64,000 nucleotides of DNA from an uncultured Thermofilaceae archaeon. Its GTDB lineage: Archaea > Thermoproteota > Thermoprotei > Thermofilales > B69-G16. Below, one piece after another: positions 17,447-62,494 of the stretch; the stretch's first letter is position 1; each line of letters starts with the position of its first letter. The notes beneath the pieces were generated by a model that saw only the letters and a list, made by a program, of their open reading frames with translations, ran no database searches and was not told the DNA's origin. The stretch covers positions 4,311 through 68,310 of the forward strand of contig CAZCTW010000006.1 in the NCBI GenBank assembly GCA_964501905.1. The letters run 5' to 3'. The translations under genes and the position numbers were made by a program.

Positions 17447-17525
17447 GACAACTCCCCGAAGCAGAAGGTAAACTATCTATAAATAGATAACTCATTAGTA
17501 AACGAAATCCGCCTCTCGAGCTCGG

Positions 17526-18116
17526 CTACTTCATATACCTCTCTAATAATCCCATCTTCTCTAAAAAGCCGAGCCAGTCCACTCGCCCCGGTCTATAGTT
17601 CTTCCTCTCTCTTATTATGTATAAAACTTCATCAACTACTTCCTCTAAGCTTTTCTCCGTAGCGTCTAACTCAAAGACTTTCTCTTCTCCAAAATTTGCT
17701 ATAGCGTCCACCAGGCATGAGTCTAAAATTTCGCTTTGAACATTAATTAGTATTTTTTCCTCGCTGTAGCCTCTTCTCCTTAACCTCTCCTCTAACTCTA
17801 GAGGATTCAACCTTAAAACTATGGCAAGCTCTACATATTCTGAGGGTATGACATCTACGACGTGCCCCTCTATTAGAATAAGTTCGCCGGGCTTACACTC
17901 CTCCTTCAAGGCTTTCCTCATGGCTTCGAAATCTACGTCGTAGCTATCTAGATGCTCTATATAGCGCTTTATCAGATTCTTCTCTAAAGCGAATTTGCTC
18001 AAGCTTATAAGCCTGCAACCCAACTTCTCCGCTACTTTCTCAGCTATAGTAGTTTTACCGGTACCCGGAGTCCCCGTGATAACTATTATTTTACACACGT
18101 TTCTCACGCAAGGCAT
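17526..18116 (-). CDS. Fap7/AK6-like adenylate kinase (ribosome-maturation NTPase)
   Basis: P-loop ITGTPGTGKTT near the N-terminus, about 190 aa, and the family-typical RL..RGY motif. Confidence 0.8.
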   Translation of the reverse strand: MPCVRNVCKIIVITGTPGTGKTTIAEKVAEKLGCRLISLSKFALEKNLIKRYIEHLDSYDVDFEAMRKALKEECKPGELILIEGHVVDVIPSEYVELAIVLRLNPLELEERLRRRGYSEEKILINVQSEILDSCLVDAIANFGEEKVFELDATEKSLEEVVDEVLYIIRERKNYRPGRVDWLGFLEKMGLLERYMK

Positions 18117-46389: not shown

Positions 46390-46848
46390 TTAAAAACGCC
46401 AATGTGTATACTTCCACACTATAGTATCCCCGTTTGCCAAGACATATTTATCCGCCGCCACTGGACCCATCTCTAAATTACCACTCGTGACGTTATAAAT
46501 GTACCAAAGCCAGGAGTATCCTTCGCGCTTAGATATTATATTTTCTTTAACGTTATTAACCGCGGTTACATAAGCTCCGTATTCGCCGTAGATGTACTCT
46601 ACTTGTGAGACTGAAGTCAGTGCTGAGAGGACTGTAGCGCCTGCGGGGAGAACAGTGCTGTTGAACCATTGTAGCGTGCCGTTTCCATAGTCGATTCCTA
46701 TGTTAACCACGATGGTTTTGCTCGTTAGGCTATCGTAGAGTTTTTTGATAGTCGAGTATTCGTTGTAGTAGTAGGCGGCCAAGGACGTAGCTAGCAGAGA
46801 CCACACTAACAATATTCCTATGAGAAGAGATTTAGAAGACGCCTTCAT
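46390..46848 (-). CDS. Secreted DUF4430-like (transcobalamin-C-terminal-like) protein
   Basis: N-terminal signal/anchor helix. GATVLSALT...ANGDTIVWKY is reminiscent of DUF4430. Confidence 0.7.
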   Translation of the reverse strand: MKASSKSLLIGILLVWSLLATSLAAYYYNEYSTIKKLYDSLTSKTIVVNIGIDYGNGTLQWFNSTVLPAGATVLSALTSVSQVEYIYGEYGAYVTAVNNVKENIISKREGYSWLWYIYNVTSGNLEMGPVAADKYVLANGDTIVWKYTHWRF

Positions 46849-47374
46849 AAAACACCCCCCTTTTCTCCAATTCTCGGAATAAAACGTAAGTTAGTAGAGA
46901 TGTACACAACTCGGTTATGGGCCCAACCCCTATTAAACTCCCTCCGAAAACCGGGAGAAACAAGCCTACAATACCCCAAGTTAAAGCGTCTAGCGGTTTA
47001 AAGCCTATTGCCACATAGAGAATAAAAGACGATAGTATGTCGAAGAAAAATATGCTCAAATACAACCACGCAAAAAGTTCTACTCCGCTCCACTTACGCC
47101 TTCTCGCTAAACCCCAAAGAAAACCCATAAACCCGGCTAGAAGAGAATTTACTATCGTCCATATTCCAGGGAATATCAATAAATCGGAAATCGTATAGGA
47201 TAGAAGACCTACGAAAAAGCCCGCTCTGGATCCGAGGAAAAGACTAGATAATATCGTGAATAGGAGGGGGAAATTAACAAATTGCACTGCCGTAACTGCA
47301 TTTTTAACATATCTAAATAATACTGCAAGGCTTGCAAATAATGCGATTGTACTCACTTCGTAGCTACGCACCAT
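46832..47374 (-). CDS. Small polytopic membrane protein, ECF S-component-like
   Basis: 180 aa with 5-6 TM helices. It overlaps the downstream DUF4430-like gene by 17 nt (same operon). Confidence 0.6.
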   Translation of the reverse strand: MVRSYEVSTIALFASLAVLFRYVKNAVTAVQFVNFPLLFTILSSLFLGSRAGFFVGLLSYTISDLLIFPGIWTIVNSLLAGFMGFLWGLARRRKWSGVELFAWLYLSIFFFDILSSFILYVAIGFKPLDALTWGIVGLFLPVFGGSLIGVGPITELCTSLLTYVLFRELEKRGVFYEGVF

Positions 47375-47475: not shown

Positions 47476-50400
47476 TTACTCTTCTTCGGCTTGGAAAATT
47501 TCAAAGATTCCCCCTTCTTCTTTAATTTCCCTTCCCGAGGCTTCTATTTCTTCTCGTTTGGACTCTTCTTTGGGCGGAGGAGGAGGCAGTTTCTTCTTTC
47601 TACGTTTAATATAGAACGCGAAGATAAGGAAAGCTATGGTAATTATTGCGATTATAATTAGGAGTACTATCTTCCAGAATGCTAGTTTAACTCTTACTTT
47701 TATCTCGTTACTTCTAGCAGTTGAAAATACTCTCGTTTCTTCCAGAGTTACCCTATATTTGTAAACTCCAGTTGACTCCTCCACTACTCTGAAGACTGCC
47801 GTCCCGTCTTCTCTTGTAGTATTCGTTGCTAAAGGTATGAACTCTCTATTTGTCGATTTTTCTAAGACAACGGTAACGCCAGCTACCGGGTCGCCCGTAG
47901 AATCTACAGCTGAGACTACTACGTAAAATGGTCTTCCTTCTTCAGGAGTGCCTCTTACTTCAACATTTAGCGTTACGCTCTTCTTTCTAATAATAGCCGT
48001 TGCAGTGGCGACTGCTGGAGCCCTAAGCCCATCACCTTCAAACATAACCGATATTTCATGGGTGCCCGAGGAGTCGAAGATAATTTCACCGGTCATGATA
48101 CCCATGCTATTAGTTACGCCCGAATCGATTAGGAAGCCGTCTGCGTAGTAGTATAGCGTTAACCCCCCTATAGGCGTCATGTTGGCGTAGGTCGCAGAAA
48201 CGCTGAAGCTTAGCGGTTCATCTACAAATGATTCTAAAACGGTTCGTTGAATTCTCAATCTAACTGAAAGCTTATAAACTGTTAGAGGCAAAACTTCGGA
48301 ATCCGATCCTGCGTAGACATCGTCGCCTTCAAAGTGGGCAGAGTACTCGTAATTTCCCGGAGTTACCTCTCTGATAGTACAAGAAACTGTTCCTGATGCG
48401 CTTGTTAACTGCTCGCAGATAACCTCTGTGCCCTTTAAAAAGACTATGTTTCTTCCGCTTATGGGATTTCCCTCGTCGTCGACGAGAGTAGCTGTGAGAG
48501 TGAAGGGTATGGTTACGTTAGCTAGTTCGGGAGCCTCTAACGTCAAAGTGGTGGGTATTAAGCCTATTTCTATGCTAACCACATTGCTCGTAGTCCTATA
48601 ATATTCATCATCGCCTGCGAACCTCGCCCTGTAGTAGAAAACTCCACGCCCTTCTTCCGATAGCTCAAATATAGCGATACCCCCGTCGCTGGTAATTTTT
48701 ACATCGACGAGAGCCCACTCTTCCATGTCGACACTCTTCTCCAATATAACGGTTTTACCCTCTAAAGGCTCTCCTTCATACGTTAACGTGGCTAAAAGTT
48801 GGAAAACACGGCCGATACCCACATATGAAGGACCAGTGAGCTCAAGGTTTGGAACCGGCAGTACTTCGACCGTTATGGGAGCGCTTACAGAACTGGTATA
48901 GTATACTGAGCCCGTGTATACAACCCTAAACGAGTAAAGCCCCGGTTCTGGAGGCGTATATGCGATCTCTGCATAGCCAGAGACATCTGTTATATCTGTC
49001 CCTATCGTAGACCACGAGCTTCCAGTCCATACTTGGAACTCAACTGTTTGCCCGCTTATTCCAACGGAGCCGGAGTAGAGGTAGGCAGTTAAAATTAATG
49101 GTATTCCAGAGCCTGAAATGGGTGGTCCTGTTAGGGTTAGAGCAGTTTCAAGTTTTAGTTCGTAAACCCTTAAACCAAAATACCACTCCGTGCCCAGCGG
49201 GGAATAGTAGGCTAGGGTTAAAATAGCCGTACTCGCCCCCGGGTAGTTGAAATCGAATTCCACTTCGCCTAATGTGTTAGATACTCTATTTCTAACTTCG
49301 ATGATTGATCCGCTTACTCTATTCTTTAACTGTAACTGTACGTTTGCTCCTTCTAGCGGGTCTACGCCATCGGTTATTTTAACGTCAACCCGAAAAGCGT
49401 CGCCAGGCCAACCGTGTGTAGAATCTGGCGTGCCACCCCTATAAACGGTGAGGGAGTCTATGATATTCGGGGTTTTGAGGTAGAGTAGCATTTCGTCAAC
49501 TTCTACTGTACCGCTTAGGGGGAAATCCGCTAAGTTAAGGTCTCCTAGCGCGTCAATTGAAGCGGGCTCGTAAGCTGTTCTCGTGGAGCCTGACACTATC
49601 GTTAGGTTGATAACTTCTGCTCGGGGCGGGATAGTCCAGAAGACTTCTGACATAGAGACGGGGGGAGAGAAGCGTTTACGGTATATTATAACTCCGTAGT
49701 CGCTATCTGATTTCACTATCGAGGTTCCGAGCCCCCAACCGCTATGGAAGCCTGGGAGGTAAAGGAAAGTGCATGGGGGAATAACTATTCTCATTTTCCA
49801 ATTTCTTAGTGGAATTATATAGTCTGCTAGGTTAAGCGTGACTATCCCGGGAGAGGATGCCATAACACTTTTCCTCACTTCATTACCTTCAATGAGCTCT
49901 ACTACGGCTCCCGGAGGAAGATCTTTTACAACGATACCTAGTGACCGGTAAACTCTAATATTATCAAATAAAACAGGCGATTCAGGCGTATAGGCAGTAA
50001 GCCTTAGAACGACTGAATAGGCATCGGTTGACTGGTGGGCTACTACAGTCTCCCATTCATCGTCCATACGCAGATACCCGCTATAATATGCGGTTCCACC
50101 ACCTCCTCCATAATATTGTATTCTTAAATGGAAAACCTGATCTATTGGCGGAGCTATAGGATTTACGGAGTTTGGGGGCGGATTGTAGACTGTTCCCGCT
50201 GAAATTTTTACGGAGAGGGAAGCTATACTTGTAGTAGAGGATAAGGGATTTGAAGTGTCGCCGCTGTATCGCGATAAACTAAGGCCTAGCATATTATAGC
50301 CCGGCGATTTTAAAGTAACTTCATAAATAGCGTATCCTAGTAGATCATTGAACTCTAAAAAGCCCCAATCCGCTGCGCTTTCCGCTACTAGCCATCCGTC

Positions 50401-50676
50401 TTCGATTGCCCAACCGCCGCTGAGAGCTGTCCACCTCGTGGAGTCAAGCGTATTGAATTCATCATATAGTATTAAGCCAGAGGATTCTAGGATGATGTCG
50501 TCTCCTGTGAATTCGTATATATCTCCGCCCCAGATATATTCGAAACTTTTTTCGATAGTTCTAGGTCTAAAGTCTTGCACCCAAGTGGAGCTTGGAGTCC
50601 CCCTCGCTATCTCCAAATTTATAAAGATTAAAATAACCAGAAGCGCAATGAAGGTTCTCTTATATTTAATATGCAT
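47476..50676 (-). CDS. Large cell-surface protein: signal peptide, lectin/LamG-like N-terminal region, tandem Ig-like domains, C-terminal TM anchor and charged tail
   Basis: 1066 aa. N-terminal hydrophobic signal (FIALLVILIFINLEIARG). At least five repeats of about 95-100 aa, each ending in an F/Y-x-G-D-x-x-Y...S-x-x-(V/I)-x-(V/I) pattern. C-terminal TM helix (aa 998-1023), then KRRKKKLPPPPPKEE... Confidence 0.85.
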   Translation of the reverse strand: MHIKYKRTFIALLVILIFINLEIARGTPSSTWVQDFRPRTIEKSFEYIWGGDIYEFTGDDIILESSGLILYDEFNTLDSTRWTALSGGWAIEDGWLVAESAADWGFLEFNDLLGYAIYEVTLKSPGYNMLGLSLSRYSGDTSNPLSSTTSIASLSVKISAGTVYNPPPNSVNPIAPPIDQVFHLRIQYYGGGGGTAYYSGYLRMDDEWETVVAHQSTDAYSVVLRLTAYTPESPVLFDNIRVYRSLGIVVKDLPPGAVVELIEGNEVRKSVMASSPGIVTLNLADYIIPLRNWKMRIVIPPCTFLYLPGFHSGWGLGTSIVKSDSDYGVIIYRKRFSPPVSMSEVFWTIPPRAEVINLTIVSGSTRTAYEPASIDALGDLNLADFPLSGTVEVDEMLLYLKTPNIIDSLTVYRGGTPDSTHGWPGDAFRVDVKITDGVDPLEGANVQLQLKNRVSGSIIEVRNRVSNTLGEVEFDFNYPGASTAILTLAYYSPLGTEWYFGLRVYELKLETALTLTGPPISGSGIPLILTAYLYSGSVGISGQTVEFQVWTGSSWSTIGTDITDVSGYAEIAYTPPEPGLYSFRVVYTGSVYYTSSVSAPITVEVLPVPNLELTGPSYVGIGRVFQLLATLTYEGEPLEGKTVILEKSVDMEEWALVDVKITSDGGIAIFELSEEGRGVFYYRARFAGDDEYYRTTSNVVSIEIGLIPTTLTLEAPELANVTIPFTLTATLVDDEGNPISGRNIVFLKGTEVICEQLTSASGTVSCTIREVTPGNYEYSAHFEGDDVYAGSDSEVLPLTVYKLSVRLRIQRTVLESFVDEPLSFSVSATYANMTPIGGLTLYYYADGFLIDSGVTNSMGIMTGEIIFDSSGTHEISVMFEGDGLRAPAVATATAIIRKKSVTLNVEVRGTPEEGRPFYVVVSAVDSTGDPVAGVTVVLEKSTNREFIPLATNTTREDGTAVFRVVEESTGVYKYRVTLEETRVFSTARSNEIKVRVKLAFWKIVLLIIIAIITIAFLIFAFYIKRRKKKLPPPPPKEESKREEIEASGREIKEEGGIFEIFQAEEE
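47686..49152 (-). repeat. Five tandem Ig-like domain repeats inside the surface-protein gene (protein-level repeat)
   Basis: Repeat ends at the protein level are VVYTGSVYYTSSVSAPITVEV, RFAGDDEYYRTTSNVVSIEI, HFEGDDVYAGSDSEVLPLTV, MFEGDGLRAPAVATATAIIRK and VTLEETRVFSTARSNEIKVRV. They are diverged at the DNA level. Confidence 0.6.
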
Positions 50677-50952
50677 TAACTCACCTCATTAATGGTAGTA
50701 TAGAATACTTTGAGTATATATTTATTTAGAGTTTCAATTTTAACCTGCTAGTTAAAGATTTTACACGCGGTTCTTTTCGTAACCCAAATATTTTCAAAGA
50801 CTTCTCATCACTTTAACCTATTATTTAGGTCACATTTCGGAGCTTCCTTTATAGGATGTGTGAATCAAAATGAAAAACTAAAATAAACTCTTAGATTTTC
50901 GTATCGAATCTTTTAGAAAACTATTTCAATAATAGAGTTTATAACCCATTAT

Positions 50953-51810
50953 ATGTATAGGAATAGATTGGTTACACTATCTCTCCTAGTGGTTTTTCTG
51001 CTAGCCTTTCTACACTTAATAACCTATTTCTTGCCTAGCGGAGGAGCTACTGAAGATTTTAATAATATTCCAGAGTTTTTCGTTGAGGCTATAAGGTACA
51101 GAAACGAGACTAACTATATCTTGGATAGAGCTGGCAGGGGGCTTGAACCCGAAAATTACACCATATCCGAGATACATTCTAAGTGTACCTATATTTCGAA
51201 GGTAATCAGCGAATTTCGTGAAACATTGAGAGAAGGAGATTTGGCAGAAAAATTAAGGAAAGCGTCTATATCGTATGAAAAAGCAGCGGAGAGCGCGGCT
51301 TTAACGGCTAATTCCTCCCGTATCATTGCTTTGGCTTTTAAGAAAACTGAAAAGGCATTAACTTTAGCTGCTTCCTGCGAAATAGATGCATCTTTAGATG
51401 TTTGGAAAGAGGCTGAACCCATAGTTTTAGAAGCTATAGCTGAGCTCGAGTCCATGTATAATATCTTGGAAGAAGATAACTCTGATTATCTTCTCTCCGA
51501 GAAACACGTGGAAATTTACGACAGAGCTGTGGAGTTAACGTCTAAGCTTTTATCGTCTCTTAGAGAAGCCTATAAAACGATGGAACTAGTTGAAGAATAC
51601 AGCGCGGAGCTAAAGGAGTTGTGTAAAGGAGGAGTTCCCTGCGGTAAGTTAAAGACTGCGGCTATAGGCTTAAACCCGGGGGCTGGAGGCAGATTTGGCT
51701 ATTTAATAGCCTCTATTAAATCTAAAATTTTAAGTTACGGAGCACGCGGGAACGGTGGTAATGGTGTTGGAGGAGGGGCAGGCTATACTCCTCCTTCAAG
51801 CGATGATTAA
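50953..51810 (+). CDS. Hypothetical secreted/anchored helical protein with Gly-rich C-terminus
   Basis: 285 aa with an N-terminal hydrophobic helix, a predominantly helical A/E/L/K-rich body and a GARGNGGNGVGGGAGYTPPSSDD tail. Its stop overlaps the next start (ATGATTAA). Confidence 0.6.
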   Translation: MYRNRLVTLSLLVVFLLAFLHLITYFLPSGGATEDFNNIPEFFVEAIRYRNETNYILDRAGRGLEPENYTISEIHSKCTYISKVISEFRETLREGDLAEKLRKASISYEKAAESAALTANSSRIIALAFKKTEKALTLAASCEIDASLDVWKEAEPIVLEAIAELESMYNILEEDNSDYLLSEKHVEIYDRAVELTSKLLSSLREAYKTMELVEEYSAELKELCKGGVPCGKLKTAAIGLNPGAGGRFGYLIASIKSKILSYGARGNGGNGVGGGAGYTPPSSDD

Positions 51811-52708
51811 ACTTGAACGTCCGGAGTATGCCCTGCTTTTTATACCTACTGTTTTAGCTTACATTCTTTTCCTAATTTTCGCGGAGAGGAACTATTCTAA
51901 ACTTTTGAAAATTCTCATCCCTGCTGGAAGGAAGAGATGGATTAGGAAGTTGATAATTTTTTCTAAAATTTTTTTGATCCTGTTACTAACTTTTTCTTTA
52001 TGTCAACCCTATATAGAGAAAAGGGAGGTAAAACCTTTAGAAAAGGGAGATTTAGAGGCCATGAGGGAGAAAAAAGCTGCTCTAATTCTTCTAGTCGATG
52101 TTTCGAAGAGTATGTCTTATGAAGATAGGATAGGTAAAACGGAGTCTTTCCTTTCGAGTTTCCTATCTCAACTAGGGAATCTAGATGAGATGGTCGTAGC
52201 GGTTTTCGCTAAAGACGTCGAAGTAGTCTATAAGGGGCCTCCCTCTAATTTTAGCTTGTCGCTACACGCGGGACGGCGTTACAGCGCGATAGGAGATGCT
52301 CTTTCTTTCGCTTTTTCCTACGCTAAAGCAAGCGGCTTACCGGCGGGGGTGGTGCTGGTCACCGATGGCGGTTGGAATTATGGCTCTAACCCCGTTCACA
52401 TCGCTAAACTTTATGGGAAAATTCCTTTAGCAGTAGTTCATGTAGGTTATGGCGCCAGTAGCGATCCCGAGCTTTTAATGGAGGTTGCTGAAGCGGCGGG
52501 AGGGTGGTATTACGAAATTAACGAGGTGACTTTAGAAGTTCTTGAATCTCTGTCTGAGAACTTGTATAGTGAAGTTAAATATGCAGCTTTAACATCTAGC
52601 GGAGAAAGCCACGTAGAGTACGTAGTTAAAGATGATTCTTCGCCTCAGGCATTTATATGGGCGGTTTTCGCGCTGTTTTTAATTATATCATTGGCTGATG
52701 GTGTCTGA
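51803..52708 (+). CDS. vWA-domain membrane protein (BatA-like)
   Basis: N-terminus MIKLERPEYALLFIP... followed by TM helices, as in BatA-type proteins. MIDAS motif DVSKS in LILLVDVSKSMSYED. C-terminal TM helix. The longest ORF starts at 51755. Confidence 0.8.
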   Translation: MIKLERPEYALLFIPTVLAYILFLIFAERNYSKLLKILIPAGRKRWIRKLIIFSKIFLILLLTFSLCQPYIEKREVKPLEKGDLEAMREKKAALILLVDVSKSMSYEDRIGKTESFLSSFLSQLGNLDEMVVAVFAKDVEVVYKGPPSNFSLSLHAGRRYSAIGDALSFAFSYAKASGLPAGVVLVTDGGWNYGSNPVHIAKLYGKIPLAVVHVGYGASSDPELLMEVAEAAGGWYYEINEVTLEVLESLSENLYSEVKYAALTSSGESHVEYVVKDDSSPQAFIWAVFALFLIISLADGV

Positions 52709-53675
52709 GATGTTCTACTTTGAGAAAATTGAACTTCTGTGGGTTTTCCCGCTTCTAGCTCTGATTTTAGTGCTTCTCCATATTAAAGGCTATGAAATCT
52801 TCCTAGAGTACTCAAGGTTTTATCATCCTCTTGCCCGTTTTTTAAAGAAGAAGGGGAAAAGAGACAGGAGGTATTCTACTTTAATATTAAAGATTCTACT
52901 AGCGCTAATCATTTCAATGGCGATGGCTAACCCTTACGTATTAGAGGAGAAGAGAATTGAAGCGGAAGGATCAGAGGGTGAGCTCAAGTTAGAGGCTAGA
53001 CCTGCTGTTGTTTTAGTTTTAGATTCTTCGGGGAGTATGGGGGAATTTATAGATGGCGTCGTAAAGATGGAAGCTGCTAAGAAAGCGGTAGAAAGACTTT
53101 TGGAGGTAGCCCCGGAGGAAATAGATTTTGGGCTAGTGGTATTTGAGAGCAGAATTAAACTAGCAGTGCCTATAACGGGAAATAGGTCTAGGATACTCGG
53201 AGAAATGGGTAAGATCGAGGCTGGAGGAGGGACGGGCTACGGACCCGCTCTTTCCACGGCTCTCGTCTGGCTTAAACCCTATAGAGTTTTTAACGTTAGC
53301 TGTGCCGCTGTTTTGGTTTCTGATGGCATGCCGGGGGATAAGCCTGGCTATGAGAGAGTATTGGAGGAATACGTTAAATACGGAATTCCCATACACACGA
53401 TTTACATAGGGCGGGAGGGGGAGGCGGGCGAGAGAGAGGCGGCTATGATAGCGGAAAAGACAGGTGGCGGGCACTATACGGCTACTAGCGTGGATGGGCT
53501 AGTTAAGGCTTTTGAAAATATAGGAGAAAGAGTAAGCGAGTTAAAAGTTGAGACTAAAGTGTACACAAAAGTGAAAATTAAAAAATCTCTATCAAACTTT
53601 CTAGTCTTCATAGCTTTAATTCTTTTATTTTCGCTTTGGCTTGCTAGGTTTTACCACGCTAGAATATCTTTTTAA
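52698..53675 (+). CDS. vWA-domain membrane protein (BatB-like)
   Basis: N-terminus FYFEKIELLWVFPLL followed by TM helices. MIDAS motif DSSGS in VVLVLDSSGSMGE. GGGTGYGPAL. C-terminal TM helix. The start may be ATG 52710. Confidence 0.8.
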   Translation: MVSEMFYFEKIELLWVFPLLALILVLLHIKGYEIFLEYSRFYHPLARFLKKKGKRDRRYSTLILKILLALIISMAMANPYVLEEKRIEAEGSEGELKLEARPAVVLVLDSSGSMGEFIDGVVKMEAAKKAVERLLEVAPEEIDFGLVVFESRIKLAVPITGNRSRILGEMGKIEAGGGTGYGPALSTALVWLKPYRVFNVSCAAVLVSDGMPGDKPGYERVLEEYVKYGIPIHTIYIGREGEAGEREAAMIAEKTGGGHYTATSVDGLVKAFENIGERVSELKVETKVYTKVKIKKSLSNFLVFIALILLFSLWLARFYHARISF

Positions 53676-54329
53676 TCTCCTTAACCATGAATCCTCGCTT
53701 CTTAAATCTCCTAGAACAAAAAGAGCTAAGCCTATAACTGCTACATCAATTACTCTAGCTAGCTGTTCTCCCCCTATTTTAACTTTAGCTTTTATATTGA
53801 AACAGGCATTAAAGTAGAGAGGCGGGGGTGGTGGTACTGAGGGAGGCGGTGCTGGCGTAATGTTTTGAGACACCCCTGCTGTGCTTGAAAAATCGCCCTC
53901 TAGGTATGCTATGAGTATAAGAGACTCCTCTAACGCTAAATCCTGTATAACAACTTCTAGACTTTGAGGAGCTGTCCGTCTCGCTGGTTCAGCCCGTATA
54001 GAAATTTTCTTCAACAATTTTAAGACTTCTTCTCTTTCTAAATTATAAATTATTTTCTCCTTTCGAAGGTATTCTTTCTCCGGTATCACGAATAGAATAG
54101 CTTGATCGACTTGGGGGACGTTGTACGCGGTCATTTTAATATCAGCCGAAATCTCTACGTTTAGATTTCTCCGTAAGAGAATAGCCTCGCTCAAGCCCCA
54201 GTCTCCTTTCACAATGCTAAATCCATACGCGCACGTCGTCTGGTGGGGAGTTAAAAATGGTAGATGGAATAGCGTTAAAGAGGCGAAGAGTAGAGAAATA
54301 ATCACGAATAACCCAAACTCTCTCAACAT
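53625..54329 (-). CDS. Hypothetical bitopic membrane protein with Pro-rich segment
   Basis: 234 aa with N- and C-terminal hydrophobic helices and PAPPPSVPPPPP. It is the last gene of the MoxR-ABC operon; its start overlaps the permease stop by 1 nt. Confidence 0.55.
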   Translation of the reverse strand: MLREFGLFVIISLLFASLTLFHLPFLTPHQTTCAYGFSIVKGDWGLSEAILLRRNLNVEISADIKMTAYNVPQVDQAILFVIPEKEYLRKEKIIYNLEREEVLKLLKKISIRAEPARRTAPQSLEVVIQDLALEESLILIAYLEGDFSSTAGVSQNITPAPPPSVPPPPPLYFNACFNIKAKVKIGGEQLARVIDVAVIGLALFVLGDLRSEDSWLRRLKRYSSVVKPSKPKRK

Positions 54330-55114
54330 TATCCCACCTCTAACCTCCGTTTAGCATAGAGTATAACGAAGACGATTAACGCTAAGAGCACGGGTATATT
54401 CGCCGCTGCCGCTTCAATCCATCTGGCCCCAAGGTGGTTGAACATCACGAGGTAGTTGTAGGGGTAGAGTATCGCGAGCCATAAAACGTCTCTAGCGGAG
54501 GGTGTTACGTTATGGACTAGGGAGAAAAATATGGCTAAAGCTATGGTCATGATTAGCGGCAGTATAAGGTATTCGAAGAAGCCGGATGCGAGGGCTAAGC
54601 TTCTCTTCTTAAAGAGTAGGGACGCCGCTAAAACTATGAAACCGCCCGTGAGGACTTGGAGAACTAATAGGAGCATTTCTTCTCCGCTAACCCCAAATAA
54701 GAGGCGGGGCTCTACAACCAGTAATGGTATAGCCAGAGATATGAAGAACATTGTAGATGGGATTATTAGCGAGGCTATAATCCAAGATAACACGTAGGAG
54801 GAGCGGGAAATTGGATGGGAAAGATAGATTGTGGCGTCGCCTCTTTCAAGCTCCAACCCTAGCTGAGCCGCGGCGATCAACGTCACAATAGCATATAGAA
54901 ATCCTGTTATTCCTAGAACTGGCGCTAGTATTAGCCGTATTTGCGGCGTAACGAAGCCGCCAGTGTAATAGGGAGTGGCTTCCACGGCTATGTTTGGGAG
55001 CATCATCGAGAGGAAGACGGTCTGTACTATGGATAGCGCCGCCATGGCTATAAGCAACTCCTTTGACAGCATGCTCACTATGTAGGTGGAGTGGAGTAAA
55101 GCTTTAGAACGCAT
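54329..55114 (-). CDS. ABC-2-type transporter permease
   Basis: 261 aa with about 6 TM helices. Its start overlaps the 3' end of the ATPase gene by 11 nt. Confidence 0.7.
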   Translation of the reverse strand: MRSKALLHSTYIVSMLSKELLIAMAALSIVQTVFLSMMLPNIAVEATPYYTGGFVTPQIRLILAPVLGITGFLYAIVTLIAAAQLGLELERGDATIYLSHPISRSSYVLSWIIASLIIPSTMFFISLAIPLLVVEPRLLFGVSGEEMLLLVLQVLTGGFIVLAASLLFKKRSLALASGFFEYLILPLIMTIALAIFFSLVHNVTPSARDVLWLAILYPYNYLVMFNHLGARWIEAAAANIPVLLALIVFVILYAKRRLEVG

Positions 55115-56012
55115 ACCTCGACACCACTGCCTTATACATATCCTCTAGGTTGGCCGTCGTCAACTCTACGTTTTCTGCTCCAAGTTCGAACGCCTTATCT
55201 TCTATATTTTTCCAGTAGCCCGACTGAGTTCTAACGATTAAGTAGGAATCATGTATTTCGATTGCCTCCACGTACTCCTCGCGGACTAGGATGGAGGCTA
55301 GGCGCCTAGGCTTGACTGAGTATATTTTAAGTATTGCCTCTACTCCGTATCGTCCGGCTAAATCTCTCATCGAGCCGTAATCTAATATTCTGCCAACGCC
55401 GATGAATACTGCATAGTCGCAGACTTTCTGAAGCTCGAGCAGGATATGGCTTGAAATGATTATAGTCACGTCTAGCTCCTTCCTCAAATTTTTTATTAAA
55501 TTAAGTATTTCCATTCGAGCTAGAGGGTCTAGGTTGGCGGTCGGCTCGTCTAAGAGCAGCATCTCGGGATCTCCCAGCAAGGCTTGTGCCAACCCGAGTC
55601 TCTGCAAGTAACCTCTTGAAAGCGCGCGTATTTTTGCTTCTAGGTATTTCTCTAGACCAGTTATTGTCGCTACTCTTTTAACTTCTCTCAAATTTCTCCC
55701 TCTTAGTTTTGCTAGGTGAAGTAGGAGCTTGGATACTCTAACGTTTGGAGGATAAGCGGGTTTTTCGTGTAAAACTCCTATTTTCATTCTTGCTTCAACG
55801 CCGTTATTCCATGGGTCTAAGCCCAAAACCTCTACTTTCCCCCGGTTGCATTTCAGTAAGCCTGTAGCTATTTTTATCGAAGTTGTTTTCCCAGCTCCGT
55901 TGGGGCCTAAAAGCCCGGCTACTACTTTACGAGGTATTTCGAACGTAGCTCCTTGTAGAGCATAAGTTCTTCCAAACTTTTTGTATACATCTTCGAAGTA
56001 CAGAGCTCTCAT
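55104..56012 (-). CDS. ABC transporter ATP-binding protein (ABC-2/CcmA-like)
   Basis: Walker A GPNGAGKTT, signature LSRGYLQR and Walker B LLLDEPTANLD. Confidence 0.9.
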   Translation of the reverse strand: MRALYFEDVYKKFGRTYALQGATFEIPRKVVAGLLGPNGAGKTTSIKIATGLLKCNRGKVEVLGLDPWNNGVEARMKIGVLHEKPAYPPNVRVSKLLLHLAKLRGRNLREVKRVATITGLEKYLEAKIRALSRGYLQRLGLAQALLGDPEMLLLDEPTANLDPLARMEILNLIKNLRKELDVTIIISSHILLELQKVCDYAVFIGVGRILDYGSMRDLAGRYGVEAILKIYSVKPRRLASILVREEYVEAIEIHDSYLIVRTQSGYWKNIEDKAFELGAENVELTTANLEDMYKAVVSRYAF

Positions 56013-57094
56013 AGGGACACCCCTCGGGGTATGCTTACATTTAAACCAGCTACCTGCCCCGCGAATTTCAATCCCTCGGCTACTACCCTATAGCGGACTT
56101 CGTAACGCGCTGTTGACTCTACGGCTTCGGCGATTTTCTCTAAGCTAGGTAGAAGTCTATGATTTAAAACCGGGAAAGCCACGGCTTCTATATCGCCTTT
56201 TTCCACTTCATCCGAGCCTCGTATAGCGGCGTATGCTTTAGCTACTCTGAGAAGGGTGATGCCAGCTCTAGGGCTAGCTCCCAATTCAAAGTATTTAGCT
56301 GCTGATTCTAGAACTTGTGGCCTAGTGCAGGAGATAAAGCGTACGACGATCTCTAGAATTTCCTCAGATACATTCACTTTCTCCGCTATCGTTTCCTGTG
56401 CTTCTACTACCCAGCTAGGCTCTACGATAGGATTTAGATCTTCTACAGGTTCTGTAATCCGGGAGAGGTGTAGCCTATAGACGTGTTTCTCGACTTCTAA
56501 CCCTTTAGGGTAGCCTATTAGAATTCTAGTGGCAAATCTGTCAAGCTGCGCCTCAGGGAGGGGGTAGGTCCCTTCCTGCTCTACCGGGTTCTGAGTGGCT
56601 ATGACGAAAAAGAACTTTGACCTGCTTCTATCCTCGAGAGGGTATGTCTTACCCCCTATTGTTACCGAGCGCTCCTGCATTGCTTGGAGGAGAGCACTTT
56701 GAGTTCTGGGTATGGCTCTGTTTATCTCATCGGCTAGCAGTACATATGTGAATATTGGACCGAAGCGGGGCTCGAATTCTCTCGTCATGGGATTAAATAT
56801 TAGACTACCAGTTATGTCGCTTGGAAGCAGGTCAGGGGTGAATTGGATTCTACTCCATCCTTTAAAACCTACTCCATCTATACTCATCACGACATCTTCT
56901 CCTAATCCCATTAGGTAGGATAACCCCCTCGCGATGGTCGTCTTCGCGACTCCAGGAACTCCCTCGAGAAGTACGTGTCCGTTAGCGAGTAGAGTAGCTA
57001 GTAATATTTTAAGTTCCTCGTCTAAGCCCAAGACAACGCTACCTAAACTGTCTAGGAGTTCTGCTGTTTTTTCGGATATCTCTTGTATCTCCAA
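56009..57094 (-). CDS. moxR: MoxR-family AAA+ ATPase
   Basis: Walker A GVPGVAKTT and Walker B LLADEINRA. The QNPVEQEGTYPLPEAQLDRF motif is typical of MoxR. Its stop overlaps the ABC ATPase start (ATGA). Confidence 0.9.
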   Translation of the reverse strand: MEIQEISEKTAELLDSLGSVVLGLDEELKILLATLLANGHVLLEGVPGVAKTTIARGLSYLMGLGEDVVMSIDGVGFKGWSRIQFTPDLLPSDITGSLIFNPMTREFEPRFGPIFTYVLLADEINRAIPRTQSALLQAMQERSVTIGGKTYPLEDRSRSKFFFVIATQNPVEQEGTYPLPEAQLDRFATRILIGYPKGLEVEKHVYRLHLSRITEPVEDLNPIVEPSWVVEAQETIAEKVNVSEEILEIVVRFISCTRPQVLESAAKYFELGASPRAGITLLRVAKAYAAIRGSDEVEKGDIEAVAFPVLNHRLLPSLEKIAEAVESTARYEVRYRVVAEGLKFAGQVAGLNVSIPRGVSL

Positions 57095-57102
57095 ATTCCC
57101 AC

Positions 57103-57909
57103 CTACTCTAAAATCACGACGTCTCCCACTTTAAGCACCTGTCTCCACGGGACATGCACATACTCGCCCCATTCCATACACTCGCGTAATAACTCGTTTA
57201 CTTCCTTAGGTGCGTTCTCCATAACTTCCTTAACTTTAGATAGTTCTCTCACATCGATTTTAGGGTTTTTGTAAGGGTTTATCAACTCTGAGAACTTTTC
57301 CTCGAGCCGCCCATATCCGCGCCTTCTCAATTCCGCCGTAAACTTAAGCCAGTTTATCATAGAGGGGCTAGGACTTACCCTGATGGCCAGCTCTCCTGGA
57401 CCTATAGCAACTCCAACTACCACTCCAAAAAACCCCCTAGAAATGCTTAGAGCCAGTTTGTTTTTCACTTCTCTATAAGAGGGCTTCCTATGTTCTTTTA
57501 TCCCCCTGTACTTAGCTTCTCTAGGCGTCGAGAGCAATATAATGTACTCGTCAAATCCCTTATCTATCCAAGCTATTTCCTCTACTGGGAAAAATCCCTT
57601 TACTATTTTCTCCCGCCGCTCAGCTTTTTTCCTCGGCGGAGTCAAGCCTTCTTCTCTTGCCAAGGAAACGAGCTCCTGAAGATTTAAGCTGTGGACATTA
57701 AAACCCCTCTCAGCTAACCGCCTCCTCAACGCATCCTCGTCGACTACTTCGTCGCCCACGTCTACTTCTATAGAGGCCGCGAGCGTCACTTTATTGCCTT
57801 CAACTTTAACTTCTTCAACTCTCCCGTAGACATAACCTTCTGAATCCACCACTAGAGCCCCTACTATCTCTTCAGGAAGCAAGTAGAGCGATCTCCTAGA
57901 TACCATCAC
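57103..57909 (-). CDS. Hypothetical protein with PRC-barrel-like segments
   Basis: 268 aa. IVGALVVDSEGYVYGRVEEVKVEGNKVTL and C-terminal HVPWRQVLKVGDVVILE resemble PRC-barrel strands. It is the first gene of the operon, 8 nt upstream of moxR. Confidence 0.6.
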   Translation of the reverse strand: MMVSRRSLYLLPEEIVGALVVDSEGYVYGRVEEVKVEGNKVTLAASIEVDVGDEVVDEDALRRRLAERGFNVHSLNLQELVSLAREEGLTPPRKKAERREKIVKGFFPVEEIAWIDKGFDEYIILLSTPREAKYRGIKEHRKPSYREVKNKLALSISRGFFGVVVGVAIGPGELAIRVSPSPSMINWLKFTAELRRRGYGRLEEKFSELINPYKNPKIDVRELSKVKEVMENAPKEVNELLRECMEWGEYVHVPWRQVLKVGDVVILE

Positions 57910-57941
57910 TTTAAAAATAGCATAAAATATAATAAACTACT

Positions 57942-58799
57942 GTGGATGACCCCTGCAAGCGCTACTACAACCTAGTGAAAACAGCTTCCCTGAAAGCCGC
58001 TACTACTTTAGCCGGCTCATCTCCACTTCGTCGAATTGGTATAGGAGTTGAAGTAGAGGATTTTAGGAAATTCGCAGAAGGAGATGATGCTAGACGGATA
58101 GACTGGAGGATAACAGCTAGGAAGCCCTCTCCAAGCGGAGATTATGAACTTTTCGTTAAAGAGTATAGAGCTGAGAGGAATTTAAAGCCTATAGTTATTG
58201 TAGACGCAACTGCCTCTATGAACTTTTGGAATAAAGCTCTGACAGCGCTTTACGCAGCCTCGTTCATTCTCAACATACTCTCAGCTTTTGGCGATAAACC
58301 CTCGCTTCTCCTATTATCTGATAAAGTAGAAGTTTTTAGGAATATAAGCGCCGACGCGCTACCCTACCTACTGGCGAAGAAACTCTGTGAGGCTGAACCC
58401 AAGGGGGGTCTTACATTAACCGAGTGTACACAGTATGTGGGTTTGGAAAAACCCATCTTCGTTATCACCGACTACGCTCATTCCCTAGATGAATTAAAAG
58501 ACTTTCTCCGCTTCATCAAAGCGTCTAATACTCCAACAATGTTCATTCTAGTATCAGCTATAGAAGAAAAAACGGATTATGGATTGGCTAACATAACCTT
58601 CGTGGATCCCGAGAAAGGGTATTTCTTCACCTCTAAAGGATCCGTCTTCCAGAAGGAAGTAAACTTACACGTGAAAACCATAAAAAATATCCTTTCACTA
58701 CACAGCATATTTGTGGAGATCGAAGGACTAAAAAGCTTTACAGCTAAAAGCAATAAAATACTCCTCTGTATTGTAAAAGTTAGAGAAAAGTGTTACTAG
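57942..58799 (+). CDS. DUF58-family protein (vWA-like, MoxR-associated)
   Basis: DUF58 signature FRKFAEGDDARRIDWRITAR, followed by the vWA-like IVIVDATASM. GTG start. Confidence 0.8.
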   Translation: MDDPCKRYYNLVKTASLKAATTLAGSSPLRRIGIGVEVEDFRKFAEGDDARRIDWRITARKPSPSGDYELFVKEYRAERNLKPIVIVDATASMNFWNKALTALYAASFILNILSAFGDKPSLLLLSDKVEVFRNISADALPYLLAKKLCEAEPKGGLTLTECTQYVGLEKPIFVITDYAHSLDELKDFLRFIKASNTPTMFILVSAIEEKTDYGLANITFVDPEKGYFFTSKGSVFQKEVNLHVKTIKNILSLHSIFVEIEGLKSFTAKSNKILLCIVKVREKCY

Positions 58800-59180: not shown

Positions 59181-59936
59181 ATGCCGAGGGAATGGGGCGA
59201 TACGATAGAAAAACTGAGATTAATAGACGGTATAGTAGACTTTGCCCGCGGCTATATACAACTTTCCGTGATGTTAACAGTTATAAATGGAGAGAAAATA
59301 ATACCGGATTATACTGCTGAAAAATTAAAACTTCCTAGAAAAAGTGTAATAGATGCTATACAAAAACTTAAAAGAAAGGGGTTAATATGCAAAAAAGGTA
59401 ATATATACATGTTAACAGAAAAGGGGAAAAAATTCTCAAAGTTGCTCCAAGATATAGTGGGCTCTCTCTCCTCAATAAATTCGATAGATAAAATAATGGA
59501 ATCGTATAGGATAAGCGAAGCCGTACTGCTTATAGGAACGTCAACTAAAGAGTGGGTAGATATTAGAAGCGTCGCTAAACAGCTAGATTTAAAGCCCGAG
59601 CAACTTGAAAAATTAATAAAAACTCGAGCCGCAAATCTGGTAAAAATTAGAAAAATAGCTGACAGCACTCTCCTGGCTCTAACCTATGAAGGCGCCGAAC
59701 TATACGATTTATTGCTAGAAAGCATTAAATTGGGACCTCTCACCGCAAGAACTCTCTCCCTCTTAACGGGAACTCTAGACCCTAGGAATGCCCTGAGAAG
59801 GTTTATGGTAGCCTATCTTCTGGTATCAATACTAGTATTCCTAGAATTAACCCAGCCCCCCTACGGGCTCATCTCCGCCGTCGCCTGGGTCATAGCCTCA
59901 TTCTACTTAGCCTTCTTAATATACTCTAAAAAATAG
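59181..59936 (+). CDS. Putative membrane-tethered DNA-binding protein (two wHTH-like modules plus C-terminal TM helices)
   Basis: One wHTH-like segment is YTAEKLKLPRKSVIDAIQKLKRKGLICKKGNIYMLTEKG. A second is IRSVAKQLDLKPEQLEKLI.... The C-terminal hydrophobic segments are VAYLLVSILVFL and LISAVAWVIASFYLAFLIY. Confidence 0.6.
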   Translation: MPREWGDTIEKLRLIDGIVDFARGYIQLSVMLTVINGEKIIPDYTAEKLKLPRKSVIDAIQKLKRKGLICKKGNIYMLTEKGKKFSKLLQDIVGSLSSINSIDKIMESYRISEAVLLIGTSTKEWVDIRSVAKQLDLKPEQLEKLIKTRAANLVKIRKIADSTLLALTYEGAELYDLLLESIKLGPLTARTLSLLTGTLDPRNALRRFMVAYLLVSILVFLELTQPPYGLISAVAWVIASFYLAFLIYSKK

Positions 59937-61414: not shown

Positions 61415-62494
61415 TTGAGAGTAAAAATTTTATTGGAGTTACGCGGGGTCGAACTTGAGGGCTCCCCCGTGTCTAGGGGAAAACCCCTAGCTATAAAAGT
61501 CGAGGATAACTCCGATCTAATTTTCGCCAATAGAGTTTCAACGCTAAAACTGCGAGTAAAAAACCTGTCTGGAAGAGTTCTAAGAAACATCTACCTAGCC
61601 CCGCCCCCCGATTACCGAGAAGAAAGAGAAGTAAAGGGAAAGTACGGCGATCTACAGCTAATGTGGGGAGGAGGAATTGTAAAAGGCTGCCTAATCATGC
61701 TGCCAAAGGATAGAACCGAGCTAAAACCTGGCGAAGAAGGCATAGCATACTTCTTCGCGTATCCTGAAGGGAGAAAATCGGAGGAAATTCAAACCCCCCT
61801 AGACATCTACATAGAAGACGAAATCGTGGATTGTGAAATAATCAATGTAAAGATAATAAAGGGAGATATTCGAGCCTACGTCTACAGGCCACGCTACGTT
61901 CCACGCATAAACGAGTCAATTCTACCCTTAGTCAAGAAAGTTATAGAGGATTATGGAGTGCCAGACGTAGAGACTCGTGTATGGCCTGTAGGCATGACAA
62001 CCGGAGTTCCAGGTCCTAAGGTTGAAATATTCTTTGAGGATAAGAAAGTAGCGGAAATAACGGGTGATATAGGTAGCGGCTTCATGCACATAGCCAAGAT
62101 AAAAGTCCATAGGAACGTGTTTATAGCCGAAGCCCTGAGCCCCAAGGGGGGACGGAGATGGTACTGGGTTGCTAGAATATGGTTCTTCTGGCTAGATAAA
62201 AACGTTTTCGACGAAGTGCCTGACGGAGAGAGGGTAGAACTGTGGATAAACCCGGAGACAGAGGAAGTAGACTGGCTAATAACAGACGCTCACTGGAAAG
62301 AAGTAGCGTATAGAGGACCGGTGGAATGCGCAGAAGTAAAGATTACAGGAGGTTTACACAAAACTCTCAAATCTAAGCTCACTGGCCTAGTAAAATCCTA
62401 TCATGCGCCTAGAGTAGAAAACATGGAAAGGTATATGATATCGTCCGACAGCCGAGATCCAAGGAAGATTCCTCTCACAGTCCAAGGTATGTAA
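61415..62494 (+). CDS. Hypothetical soluble protein with N-terminal Ig/CARDB-like strand pattern
   Basis: 359-aa ORF with a TTG start directly after a T7 run. STLKLRVKNLSGRVLRNIYL resembles CARDB-type beta-sandwich strands. No signal peptide and no family assignment. Confidence 0.6.
   Translation: MRVKILLELRGVELEGSPVSRGKPLAIKVEDNSDLIFANRVSTLKLRVKNLSGRVLRNIYLAPPPDYREEREVKGKYGDLQLMWGGGIVKGCLIMLPKDRTELKPGEEGIAYFFAYPEGRKSEEIQTPLDIYIEDEIVDCEIINVKIIKGDIRAYVYRPRYVPRINESILPLVKKVIEDYGVPDVETRVWPVGMTTGVPGPKVEIFFEDKKVAEITGDIGSGFMHIAKIKVHRNVFIAEALSPKGGRRWYWVARIWFFWLDKNVFDEVPDGERVELWINPETEEVDWLITDAHWKEVAYRGPVECAEVKITGGLHKTLKSKLTGLVKSYHAPRVENMERYMISSDSRDPRKIPLTVQGM

Follow-up and report, generated by a model that had tools for sequence, protein, structure and literature searches.

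The 64,000-nucleotide (nt) window analysed here, from an uncultured archaeon of the Thermofilaceae, carries at positions 47476-58799 a locus that combines a MoxR-type AAA+ ATPase, a DUF58 protein, two von Willebrand factor A (vWA) proteins, an ABC-2 transporter and a PRC-barrel protein. Ten genes appear in the open reading frame (ORF) list over this region and encode Ig1066, X, vWA-A, vWA-B, Y, the permease, the ABC ATPase, MoxR, the PRC protein and DUF58 (Table 1). The nine genes other than that of Ig1066 form a rare cluster that recurs, with rearrangements, in hyperthermophilic Thermoproteota and Korarchaeota and very probably constitute a real functional system. Ig1066 is a chance neighbour. 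Unless another locus is named, coordinates are positions in the window.

Domains were assigned by Pfam and NCBIfam scans of the window proteins. A preliminary description of this DNA had placed and identified its listed genes correctly, as judged from the ORF list and these scans, and the MIDAS motifs (metal ion-dependent adhesion sites), DVSKS in vWA-A and DSSGS in vWA-B, are present as it reported. It spoke of eleven genes, of which its own list gives ten, and of three transcription units, where four are counted.

Table 1. Positions of the genes and sequence features at the locus, with one operon of the Tier 2 sister group. TM, transmembrane; NBD, nucleotide-binding domain; aa, amino acids; wHTH, winged helix-turn-helix.
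Feature	Position	Strand	Description
Ig1066	47476-50676	-	1066 aa; Pfam Big_3_5 + Big_1; C-terminal TM segment; neighbour, outside the conserved set
X	50953-51810	+	285 aa; no family match; signal anchor, helical body, Gly-rich tail
vWA-A	51755-52708	+	Pfam VWA + VWA_2; MIDAS DVSKS at residue 115; BatA/BatB-type
vWA-B	52698-53675	+	VWA_2, 58.8 bits; MIDAS DSSGS at residue 109; weakly BatA-like
Y/vWA-B convergent 3' overlap	53625-53675		51 nt
Y	53625-54329	-	234 aa; no family match; Pro-rich; third gene of the ABC module
Permease	54329-55114	-	Pfam ABC2_membrane_2, 30 bits (cutoff 27.2); six TM segments
ABC ATPase	55104-56012	-	ABC_tran, 79.9 bits; NBD + C-terminal domain, NosF/GldA-like
MoxR	56009-57094	-	AAA_3, 176 bits; AAA_lid_2, 62 bits; MoxR-proper type
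MoxR insertion	~56852-56905	-	MoxR residues ~64-81
PRC protein	57103-57909	-	268 aa; Pfam PRC, 20.4 bits, below the 21.2 cutoff; fold by AlphaFold + Foldseek
PRC/DUF58 divergent spacer	57910-57941		32 bp, AT-rich; candidate back-to-back archaeal TATA boxes
DUF58	57942-58799	+	Pfam DUF58, 56.6 bits; MIDAS-like D-x-[ST]-x-S
Tier 2 example operon	L155 9956-17846		transglutaminase-like protein, 461 aa; X-like protein, 372 aa; ends with a small wHTH regulator (17499-17846)

The genes are tightly packed. On the minus strand, PRC and MoxR are 8 nt apart, MoxR and the ABC ATPase share an ATGA, the ABC ATPase and the permease overlap by 11 nt, and the permease and Y by 1 nt. The stop codon of MoxR and the start codon of the ABC ATPase share the ATGA, and the coupling of these two genes that had been noted before is thus real in the window. 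The 11-nt overlap lies between the end of the ABC ATPase gene and the start of the permease gene. On the plus strand, the genes of X, vWA-A and vWA-B overlap successively; the true start codon of vWA-A is probably downstream of the first GTG. The spacer between the divergent PRC and DUF58 genes reads TTTAAAAATAGCATAAAATATAATAAACTACT, and its TATA boxes are candidates picked out from the letters alone. A promoter and terminator scan gave no enrichment over shuffled sequences (24 vs 20.2); its sigma-70 model is bacterial and uninformative for an archaeon.

Conservation and arrangements of the nine genes

A genome-collection scan with MoxR returned one orthologous locus, L001, from a Staphylothermus metagenome-assembled genome (MAG). 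The other hits were mostly bacterial MoxRs at ~40-45% identity, and 79 mostly bacterial MoxR loci served as controls. The neighbourhoods of PRC family members and 80 metagenome loci, fetched with the PRC family alignment, were then scored by hidden Markov models of the nine families. The ABC-linked systems, termed Tier 1, comprise 33 lineages after de-duplication. A more distant sister group is termed Tier 2.

All nine families (X, vWA-A, vWA-B, Y, permease, ABC, MoxR, PRC and DUF58) recur in the 33 Tier 1 lineages, which belong to Thermoproteota and Korarchaeota and include cultured Thermofilum. At least eight of the nine families are found on one contig in 12 lineages, and the remaining lineages are cut by contig ends. 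None of the informative contigs of the 33 lineages contradicts the linkage of the nine genes. The preliminary description had named the unlinking of orthologues in related genomes as the sign of a chance juxtaposition; instead, the nine families stay together. Protein identity between lineages is 20-60%, dropping to 20-40%. In the Staphylothermus locus, all nine genes are present in unchanged order, at only 27-61% identity, and the Ig protein is missing.

The controls give a different picture. The permease, PRC, X and Y families are found in none of the 79 control MoxR loci. DUF58 accompanies MoxR in 61 of them and BatA/B-like vWA genes are present in ~25. Generic ABC ATPase matches occur in eight, all distant from and non-adjacent to MoxR. 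The clustering of the nine families is far beyond chance.

Four arrangements of the nine genes are found (arrowheads give gene direction; perm, permease; vA and vB, vWA-A and vWA-B). Arrangement 1, seen in the window and in L001, is DUF58< PRC> MoxR> ABC> perm> Y> <vB <vA <X. Arrangement 2, of the Thermofilum type, differs from it by the inversion of PRC. Arrangement 3 is ABC> perm> Y> <vB <vA <X <DUF58 PRC> MoxR>, with an unrelated gene inserted before MoxR, and arrangement 4 is the same without the inserted gene. Three units are never broken in Tier 1, namely ABC-perm-Y, X-vA-vB, and a trio with PRC placed between DUF58 and MoxR. The functional linkage of MoxR, DUF58, the twin vWA proteins, the ABC-2 transporter, the PRC protein, X and Y, first suspected from the window, is borne out by their staying together through all four arrangements.

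The order of the trio relative to the other units varies. MoxR belongs to the ABC operon in two arrangements. In two of the four, the order DUF58-X-vWA-vWA is that of the bacterial Bat operon. The preliminary description had the MoxR-DUF58-vWA triad dispersed and MoxR coupled to an exporter. This holds in the lineage of the window, but there are other lineages in which DUF58-X-vWA-vWA follows the Bat order and MoxR stands apart from the ABC genes.

The Y/vWA-B junction is the fixed centre of every arrangement. The two genes are convergent, and of the 13 lineages with a recognisable Y, 12 show an overlap of the 3' ends, which measures 11-68 nt. Such an overlap leaves no space for a terminator, so the end of each transcript would be antisense to that of the other. 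Regulation or plain compaction may lie behind it. Coordinates of the overlap in other loci are L001 7199-7209, L083 6189-6241, L085 6072-6114 and L086 6239-6273.

Tier 2 loci carry a related operon. Their PRC homologues, from sediment metagenomes and at 24-29% identity, lead a co-directional operon in the order PRC, MoxR, DUF58, transglutaminase-like membrane protein, X-like signal-anchored helical protein, vWA and vWA. One such operon is listed in Table 1, and further examples are the loci L147, L150, L157 and L164. This composition indicates that the PRC-MoxR-DUF58-vWA link is older and broader than the addition of the ABC genes.

Predicted architecture of the encoded proteins

Topology was derived from hydropathy and charge counts according to the positive-inside rule. 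Both vWA-A and vWA-B contain two N-terminal TM segments, a vWA domain and one C-terminal TM segment. The loop between TM1 and TM2 is basic, with 6-8 Lys and Arg residues vs 0-3 Asp and Glu residues in vWA-A and with 7-11 Lys and Arg residues in vWA-B; the Asp and Glu count across both proteins is 0-4. The basic loops would place the vWA domains outside the cell. BB0173, a BatA-like protein of the same TM layout, has its vWA domain exposed to the periplasm, as mapped experimentally (PMC5700661). No variation is seen in the MIDAS residues of vWA-A (D-x-S-x-S, S/T and D) among 21 homologues, or in those of vWA-B (DxSxS, T and D) among 23. The best BatA-type match of vWA-B is NCBIfam VWA_BatA_Lepto, at 38.8 bits vs a cutoff of 380.

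X, whose gene lies directly upstream of vWA-A in all arrangements, has neither a Pfam nor an NCBIfam match. It is composed of a basic N terminus, one TM segment, a helical body with a conserved LLSExH motif, and a Gly-rich tail. The tail in the window ends in ...GGGAGYTPPSSDD-stop. All complete Tier 1 homologues share the terminal pattern G[GS]GAG[YRW]..P..D-stop.

NosF is the closest full-length solved relative of the ABC ATPase (7o0y; residues 1-297, E 3e-38), and the alignment includes the C-terminal domain. The ATPase also resembles the NBDs of ABCA-type transporters, and ATPases of the ABCA, GldA and DrrA types score similarly to NosF. Its best NCBIfam match is GldA (TIGR03522), with 168.6 bits vs a cutoff of 402.6. 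The Walker A, signature, Walker B and H-loop motifs do not vary among 28 homologues. The permease family profile gives a weak match to PmtD in the PDB (E 7e-4) and none to NosY at E <= 1.

The gene of Y is located directly downstream of the permease gene in all arrangements. Y consists of an N-terminal TM segment, a Pro-rich ectodomain, a C-terminal TM segment and a basic cytoplasmic tail with 7-10 Lys and Arg residues among the last 30. It had been called bitopic; a TM segment is in fact present at both ends, around the ectodomain. The charge pattern of the vWA loops, of the N terminus of X and of the tail of Y agrees from lineage to lineage. Y evolves fast. Its alignment across six lineages contains one invariant column and no conserved Cys or His.

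No TM segment is found in PRC, MoxR and the ABC ATPase, nor in five of six seed sequences of DUF58, which indicates that the four proteins are cytoplasmic. Across 35 homologues, MoxR keeps its Walker A, Walker B, sensor 1 and Arg motifs unchanged. An insertion follows the Walker A helix of MoxR and measures ~14 aa in Tier 1 (consensus G[VI]P[YF][KR]G) and 4 aa in Tier 2; it is absent in 10 control MoxRs. The insertion could be where the PRC or ABC partner binds. DUF58 conserves GDDxRxIDW, D-x-[TS]-x-S and TD in 40 homologues. Every Tier 1 and Tier 2 locus links it to MoxR, and it is presumed to be the vWA-type adaptor of MoxR.

The AlphaFold2 model of the PRC protein has a predicted local distance difference test score (pLDDT) of 83. 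The top Foldseek match in the PDB is CdpB1/CdpB2 (8qzo; E 1.6e-5, probability 1.0), with 12% identity to CdpB. Further matches are RimM, MTH1859 and the reaction-centre H protein, and source annotations agree with the PRC fold. In the model, the protein appears to hold several tandem barrels with helical inserts. An invariant L.TPREA.YRG motif (residues 126-136) is located beside the only disordered loop (residues 131-143, pLDDT <50) and looks like a short linear interaction motif. The family is tiny. An exhaustive profile search yielded 98 representatives among 1.84 billion proteins, and 5.8 billion proteins contain 17 clusters at 90% identity. The PRC protein is the most specific marker of the system. 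The names of its sources are Thermofilum (with T. adornatum and a complete chromosome among them), Thermoprotei and Thermoproteales MAGs, and Korarchaeota.

Given the invariant ATPase and MIDAS motifs, purifying selection seems to keep every component an active protein.

Relation to known systems and proposed mechanism

MoxR-DUF58-vWA operons of the Bat type are widespread in bacteria and archaea. To our knowledge, they have for over twenty years been tied to virulence, stress tolerance and the integrity of the envelope, while neither their targets nor their mode of action has been established. The archaeal locus shares with the Bat operon of Bacteroidota, spirochaetes and others an AAA_3 MoxR, DUF58, and two tandem vWA proteins of 2+1 TM segments with extracytoplasmic MIDAS. 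It also shares a signal-anchored protein encoded just before the first vWA gene. The two differ in several respects. The Bat operon contains the TPR/SH3 proteins BatC-E, whereas Pfam finds no TPR or SH3 domain in the genes of the locus, and neither vWA protein matches the Pfam domain of the BatA N terminus. The archaeal system in turn adds the ABC-2 ATPase, the permease, Y, the PRC protein, the MoxR insertion and the acidic tail of X.

A related archaeal complex was predicted in 2015 by Makarova, Galperin and Koonin, who proposed a secretion or membrane-remodelling complex around arCOG01314 (DUF4350, GldG-like) together with MoxR and vWA proteins (PMC5898192). Common to both systems are the archaeal host, a MoxR/COG0714 ATPase with a vWA-type partner, membrane-anchored extracytoplasmic proteins, a predicted envelope role and a conceptual link to GldAFG-type ABC-2 transporters. 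No counterpart of the DUF4350/GldG-like protein of the predicted complex is detectable here, as no protein of the locus matches DUF4350 or ABC_transp_aux. The predicted complex also has conserved Ig-like or S-layer-like proteins (arCOG02884, pfam07760), whereas Ig1066 contains Big_3_5 and Big_1 only and is not conserved. Conversely, the ABC ATPase, permease and PRC-barrel protein present here are not described in that paper (PMC5898192).

Individual parts of the locus resemble other systems. Compared with NosDFY, which serves the maturation of N2O reductase, its ABC ATPase aligns with NosF over the full length, although other ATPase types score similarly, and it has a six-TM permease and an adjacent gene for an extracytoplasmic partner. 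NosD is a beta-helix protein, whereas Y is small and matches neither NosD nor Beta_helix, and no nos genes (nosZ, nosL) are present in the window. With respect to GldAFG, the ABC ATPase does not reach the GldA equivalog cutoff and no GldG-like domain is detected at the locus; six Y sequences, considered as possible GldG/DUF4350-like auxiliary subunits, gave no family signal at E <= 5. NorQ/NorD, CbbQ/CbbO and RavA/ViaA each pair a MoxR-class hexameric ATPase with a MIDAS partner that grips an acidic residue of the target, and they serve as a working model for MoxR-DUF58. They belong to a different MoxR subfamily, whereas the locus encodes an AAA_3 protein with DUF58 and, in addition, extracytoplasmic vWA proteins.

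The PRC protein is reminiscent of cell division proteins. CdpB1/CdpB2, its best structural match, and CdvA are cytoplasmic beta-barrel adaptors that act at the membrane. The PRC gene is always found with MoxR and DUF58 rather than with FtsZ, SepF or ESCRT genes, and it forms a separate family. A survey of archaeal PRC-barrel proteins lists translation, Cdc48 and EngB neighbourhoods only and does not mention MoxR. No paper joining 'PRC barrel' and 'MoxR' was found in the literature searched. Finally, a MoxR-DUF58-transglutaminase triad is known, for example, from the bifidobacterial PFNA cluster. Tier 2 shares this triad, followed by the X-like gene and the two vWA genes, whereas Tier 1 has no transglutaminase-like gene and contains the ABC-2 module in its place.

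The core of the locus is thus a Bat-type MoxR-DUF58-BatA/B operon, and the ABC-2 and PRC additions are new as far as the literature was searched. A search that did not cover all journals found no description of the nine-gene composite with ABC-2 and PRC, or of the acidic tail of X. The earlier statement that the locus is not a described system therefore holds, within this search, for the composite and not for its core, given the Bat operon and the complex predicted in 2015.

We propose, with a probability of roughly 60%, that the nine genes encode a three-module envelope machine that is an elaborated Bat-type MoxR-DUF58-vWA system. The cytoplasmic module would comprise a MoxR AAA+ hexamer, its vWA-like partner DUF58 and the multi-PRC-barrel protein. 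The membrane module would be an ABC-2 transporter made of the NosF-like ATPase, the six-TM permease and the double-anchored ectoprotein Y. The outer-face module would consist of the two three-TM vWA proteins, with their intact MIDAS, and the signal-anchored helical protein X.

The modules may cooperate as follows. In characterised MoxR-vWA pairs, the MIDAS binds an acidic residue of the target, often a membrane protein, and the ATPase remodels that target (PMC9976466). The extracytoplasmic MIDAS sites of the locus would likewise capture an acidic ligand, for which the best candidate is the invariant C-terminal Asp of the flexible Gly-rich tail of X. Capture of X would build a membrane-anchored scaffold under the surface layer (S-layer). 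Positioned by the PRC protein, MoxR-DUF58 would spend ATP on remodelling membrane-embedded partners in the way that NorQ/NorD acts on NorB. The ABC-2 module would export a small or lipidic factor or, like NosFY, pass ATP-driven movement to Y. Structures of NosDFY from 2022 reportedly favour a mechanotransduction view of NosFY acting on NosD. The ABC-2 pair NosFY has an extracytoplasmic partner with which it works (PMC8457098). The net role of the machine would be the assembly or maintenance of an envelope complex at the membrane/S-layer interface. A role in surface assembly or remodelling had been suggested before; it is compatible with the topology, and beyond that we infer it.

The specific steps, that is, the binding of the X tail to MIDAS and the use of two motors, carry a low probability. 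A further extension is unlikely, namely that the locus represents a new type of trans-envelope machine in which the MoxR/DUF58/PRC and ABC-2 motors act on one membrane complex and drive the capture and release of the X Asp by MIDAS.

Several observations weigh against the three-module machine. A search for the permease found four homologues, and its AlphaFold2 model has a pLDDT of 46, too low to classify the fold. For Y, a search of 5.8 billion proteins returned only the sequence of the window itself, and six Y sequences have no Pfam match at E <= 5. In Tier 2, no ABC module adjoins the operon and the X analogue ends without an acidic tail, so the ABC module and the X tail are not essential to every PRC/MoxR system. 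The sequencing runs that contain the locus are DNA metagenomes only.

Alternatively, the nine genes might encode a metal-centre maturation machine resembling NosDFY, NorQD or CoxDEF, which delivers a metal or another cofactor to a metalloprotein of the membrane or the extracytoplasmic side, or inserts it there, with the NosF-like ABC-2 pair powering a partner on the outside while MoxR-DUF58 opens the target. We give this explanation a small chance of being right. It would account for the closeness of the ABC ATPase to NosF, and characterised MoxR-vWA pairs such as NorQ/NorD do mature metalloenzymes (PMC9976466). One arrangement has a metal regulator of the DtxR family encoded directly upstream of the ABC genes, and NosD-like beta-helix neighbours are found in Thermofilum-type loci and in one Tier 2 locus, but each of these neighbours is limited to one or two lineages. 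No gene for a metalloenzyme or a chaperone is conserved in the neighbourhood. The single invariant residue of Y, the lack of conserved metal ligands in both X and Y, and the failure of the permease profile to match NosY also argue against such a machine.

It is improbable that the locus merely juxtaposes two uncoupled systems, a Bat-like MoxR operon and an ordinary ABC-2 pump that, with its accessory protein, expels a drug, lipid or peptide. The Tier 2 set of PRC, MoxR, DUF58 and vWA genes does exist without an ABC module next to it, and there is also a resemblance of the ATPase and permease to exporters such as ABCA, Rv1218c and PmtCD. However, the ABC-permease-Y unit abuts vWA-B with overlapping 3' ends in the Tier 1 lineages despite the rearrangement of the other genes. 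MoxR is part of the ABC operon in two arrangements, with the ATGA overlap in the window, and the combination of MoxR with this permease family is seen in 0 of 79 control loci.

We attach little credence to a third explanation, in which the locus encodes a chaperone-assisted exporter for the adjacent Ig-repeat adhesin or for whatever large surface protein is encoded next door. Ig1066 is indeed a large anchored surface protein adjoining the cluster in the window, and the preliminary description had considered it a component or cargo of the system. Large proteins also occur elsewhere, as an anchored beta-helix protein in Thermofilum-type loci and a 727-739-aa protein near the cluster in another lineage, and the archaeal system predicted in 2015 likewise included Ig-like surface proteins. 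A tblastn search of 166 related loci, however, gave no homologue of Ig1066, which was rejected as a component on this ground. A variable large surface cargo at the cluster borders has little support either. The large flanking proteins are mutually unrelated, being an ordinary solute-binding protein in L001, the anchored NosD-like protein of the Thermofilum type and the family-less protein of 727-739 aa, and several lineages have no such protein within 3-5 kb. Furthermore, Ig1066 has its own signal peptide and anchor, which would seem to make a dedicated ABC-2 exporter unnecessary. No contig of the closest relatives of the window reaches beyond X; a lineage-specific link with Ig1066 is formally conceivable but has no support.

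A conflict or defence system, built on a MoxR-vWA ternary or an ABC ATPase with Y as an arms-race interface, would fit the extremely fast evolution of Y and the MoxR-vWA modules employed by some conflict systems (PMC7159879), but is very improbable, since PADLOC gives generic ABC-fold matches for the ATPase, two marginal matches for MoxR (E ~5e-4 to 9e-4) and none for the other eight proteins, Pfam finds no effector, nuclease, protease or beta-propeller domain in the locus proteins, the vWA proteins are of the membrane BatA/B type, and the cluster sits amid housekeeping genes with a composition stable across lineages.

The three-module machine would provide handles on the Bat problem, as it has an ABC-2 transporter locked to the vWA pair, a dedicated PRC partner and, in the X tail, a candidate MIDAS ligand. 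Its occurrence in cultured Thermofilum and its thermostable proteins make it a good structural subject, in particular for the route of energy from cytoplasmic ATPases to MIDAS domains on the outside. The known roles of archaeal PRC-barrel proteins would also reach further than cell division. If the dual-motor trans-envelope version were true, it would be the first concrete mechanism for the whole Bat/MoxR-DUF58-vWA class.

Neighbouring genes and minor observations

On one side, the cluster is flanked by a diphthamide-synthase-like gene, a DUF4443 regulator and a pair encoding DUF4430 and an energy-coupling factor (ECF) S-component. On the other side, it is flanked by genes for a wHTH membrane protein and a major facilitator superfamily transporter. 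These genes are unrelated to the cluster, and the system is therefore bounded by X and DUF58. The wHTH membrane protein (59181-59936), encoded just 3' of DUF58, has 251 aa with a winged-helix HTH_45 domain and a C-terminal TM segment and is a possible local regulator. The DUF4430 pair (46390-47374) consists of overlapping genes, one for a membrane protein that resembles an ECF-type S-component and one for a secreted protein with DUF4430; it probably serves vitamin uptake and is unrelated.

The N-terminal half of Ig1066 (residues 1 to ~500) has no family match, and its first ~250 residues have, by eye, the look of a lectin or LamG-type domain. Beyond the TM segment, the cytoplasmic tail is first rich in Pro and Lys and then turns acidic.

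The NosD-like parallel beta-helix proteins that adjoin the cluster are encoded at L086 11832-13826, at the equivalent positions in L107 and L110, and at L147 152-1840 in Tier 2. Those of the Thermofilum type have hydrophobic anchors at both the N and C termini. Other lineages lack NosD-like neighbours.

Where the ABC genes head their own operon, the gene of a small regulator is located directly upstream (L081/L082 3276-3695, L083 3275-3694 and L085 3399-3686). The regulator belongs to the DtxR/Fe_dep_repress family in one lineage and is a stand-alone AsnC ligand-binding domain in another. The DtxR-type sequence hints at metal-dependent control.

A Cdc48-type AAA ATPase is encoded downstream of the cluster in some loci. 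In L081/L082 (16815-20402) it contains an intein (1195 aa, with an Intein_splicing match), whereas the related protein of L083 (17380-19656) has 758 aa and no intein. On the short contig L095 (1-2799), the DUF58 and PRC genes are each split into two frames and an X fragment directly follows PRC. This may be a decaying copy, a rearranged copy, or an artefact of assembly or sequencing.

Elsewhere in the window, a 359-aa ORF (61415-62494) has no Pfam match. A 768-aa protein (42499-44805), recognised from its sequence, is what we take to be a full-length HypF-like carbamoyltransferase, which presumably points to [NiFe]-hydrogenase maturation.

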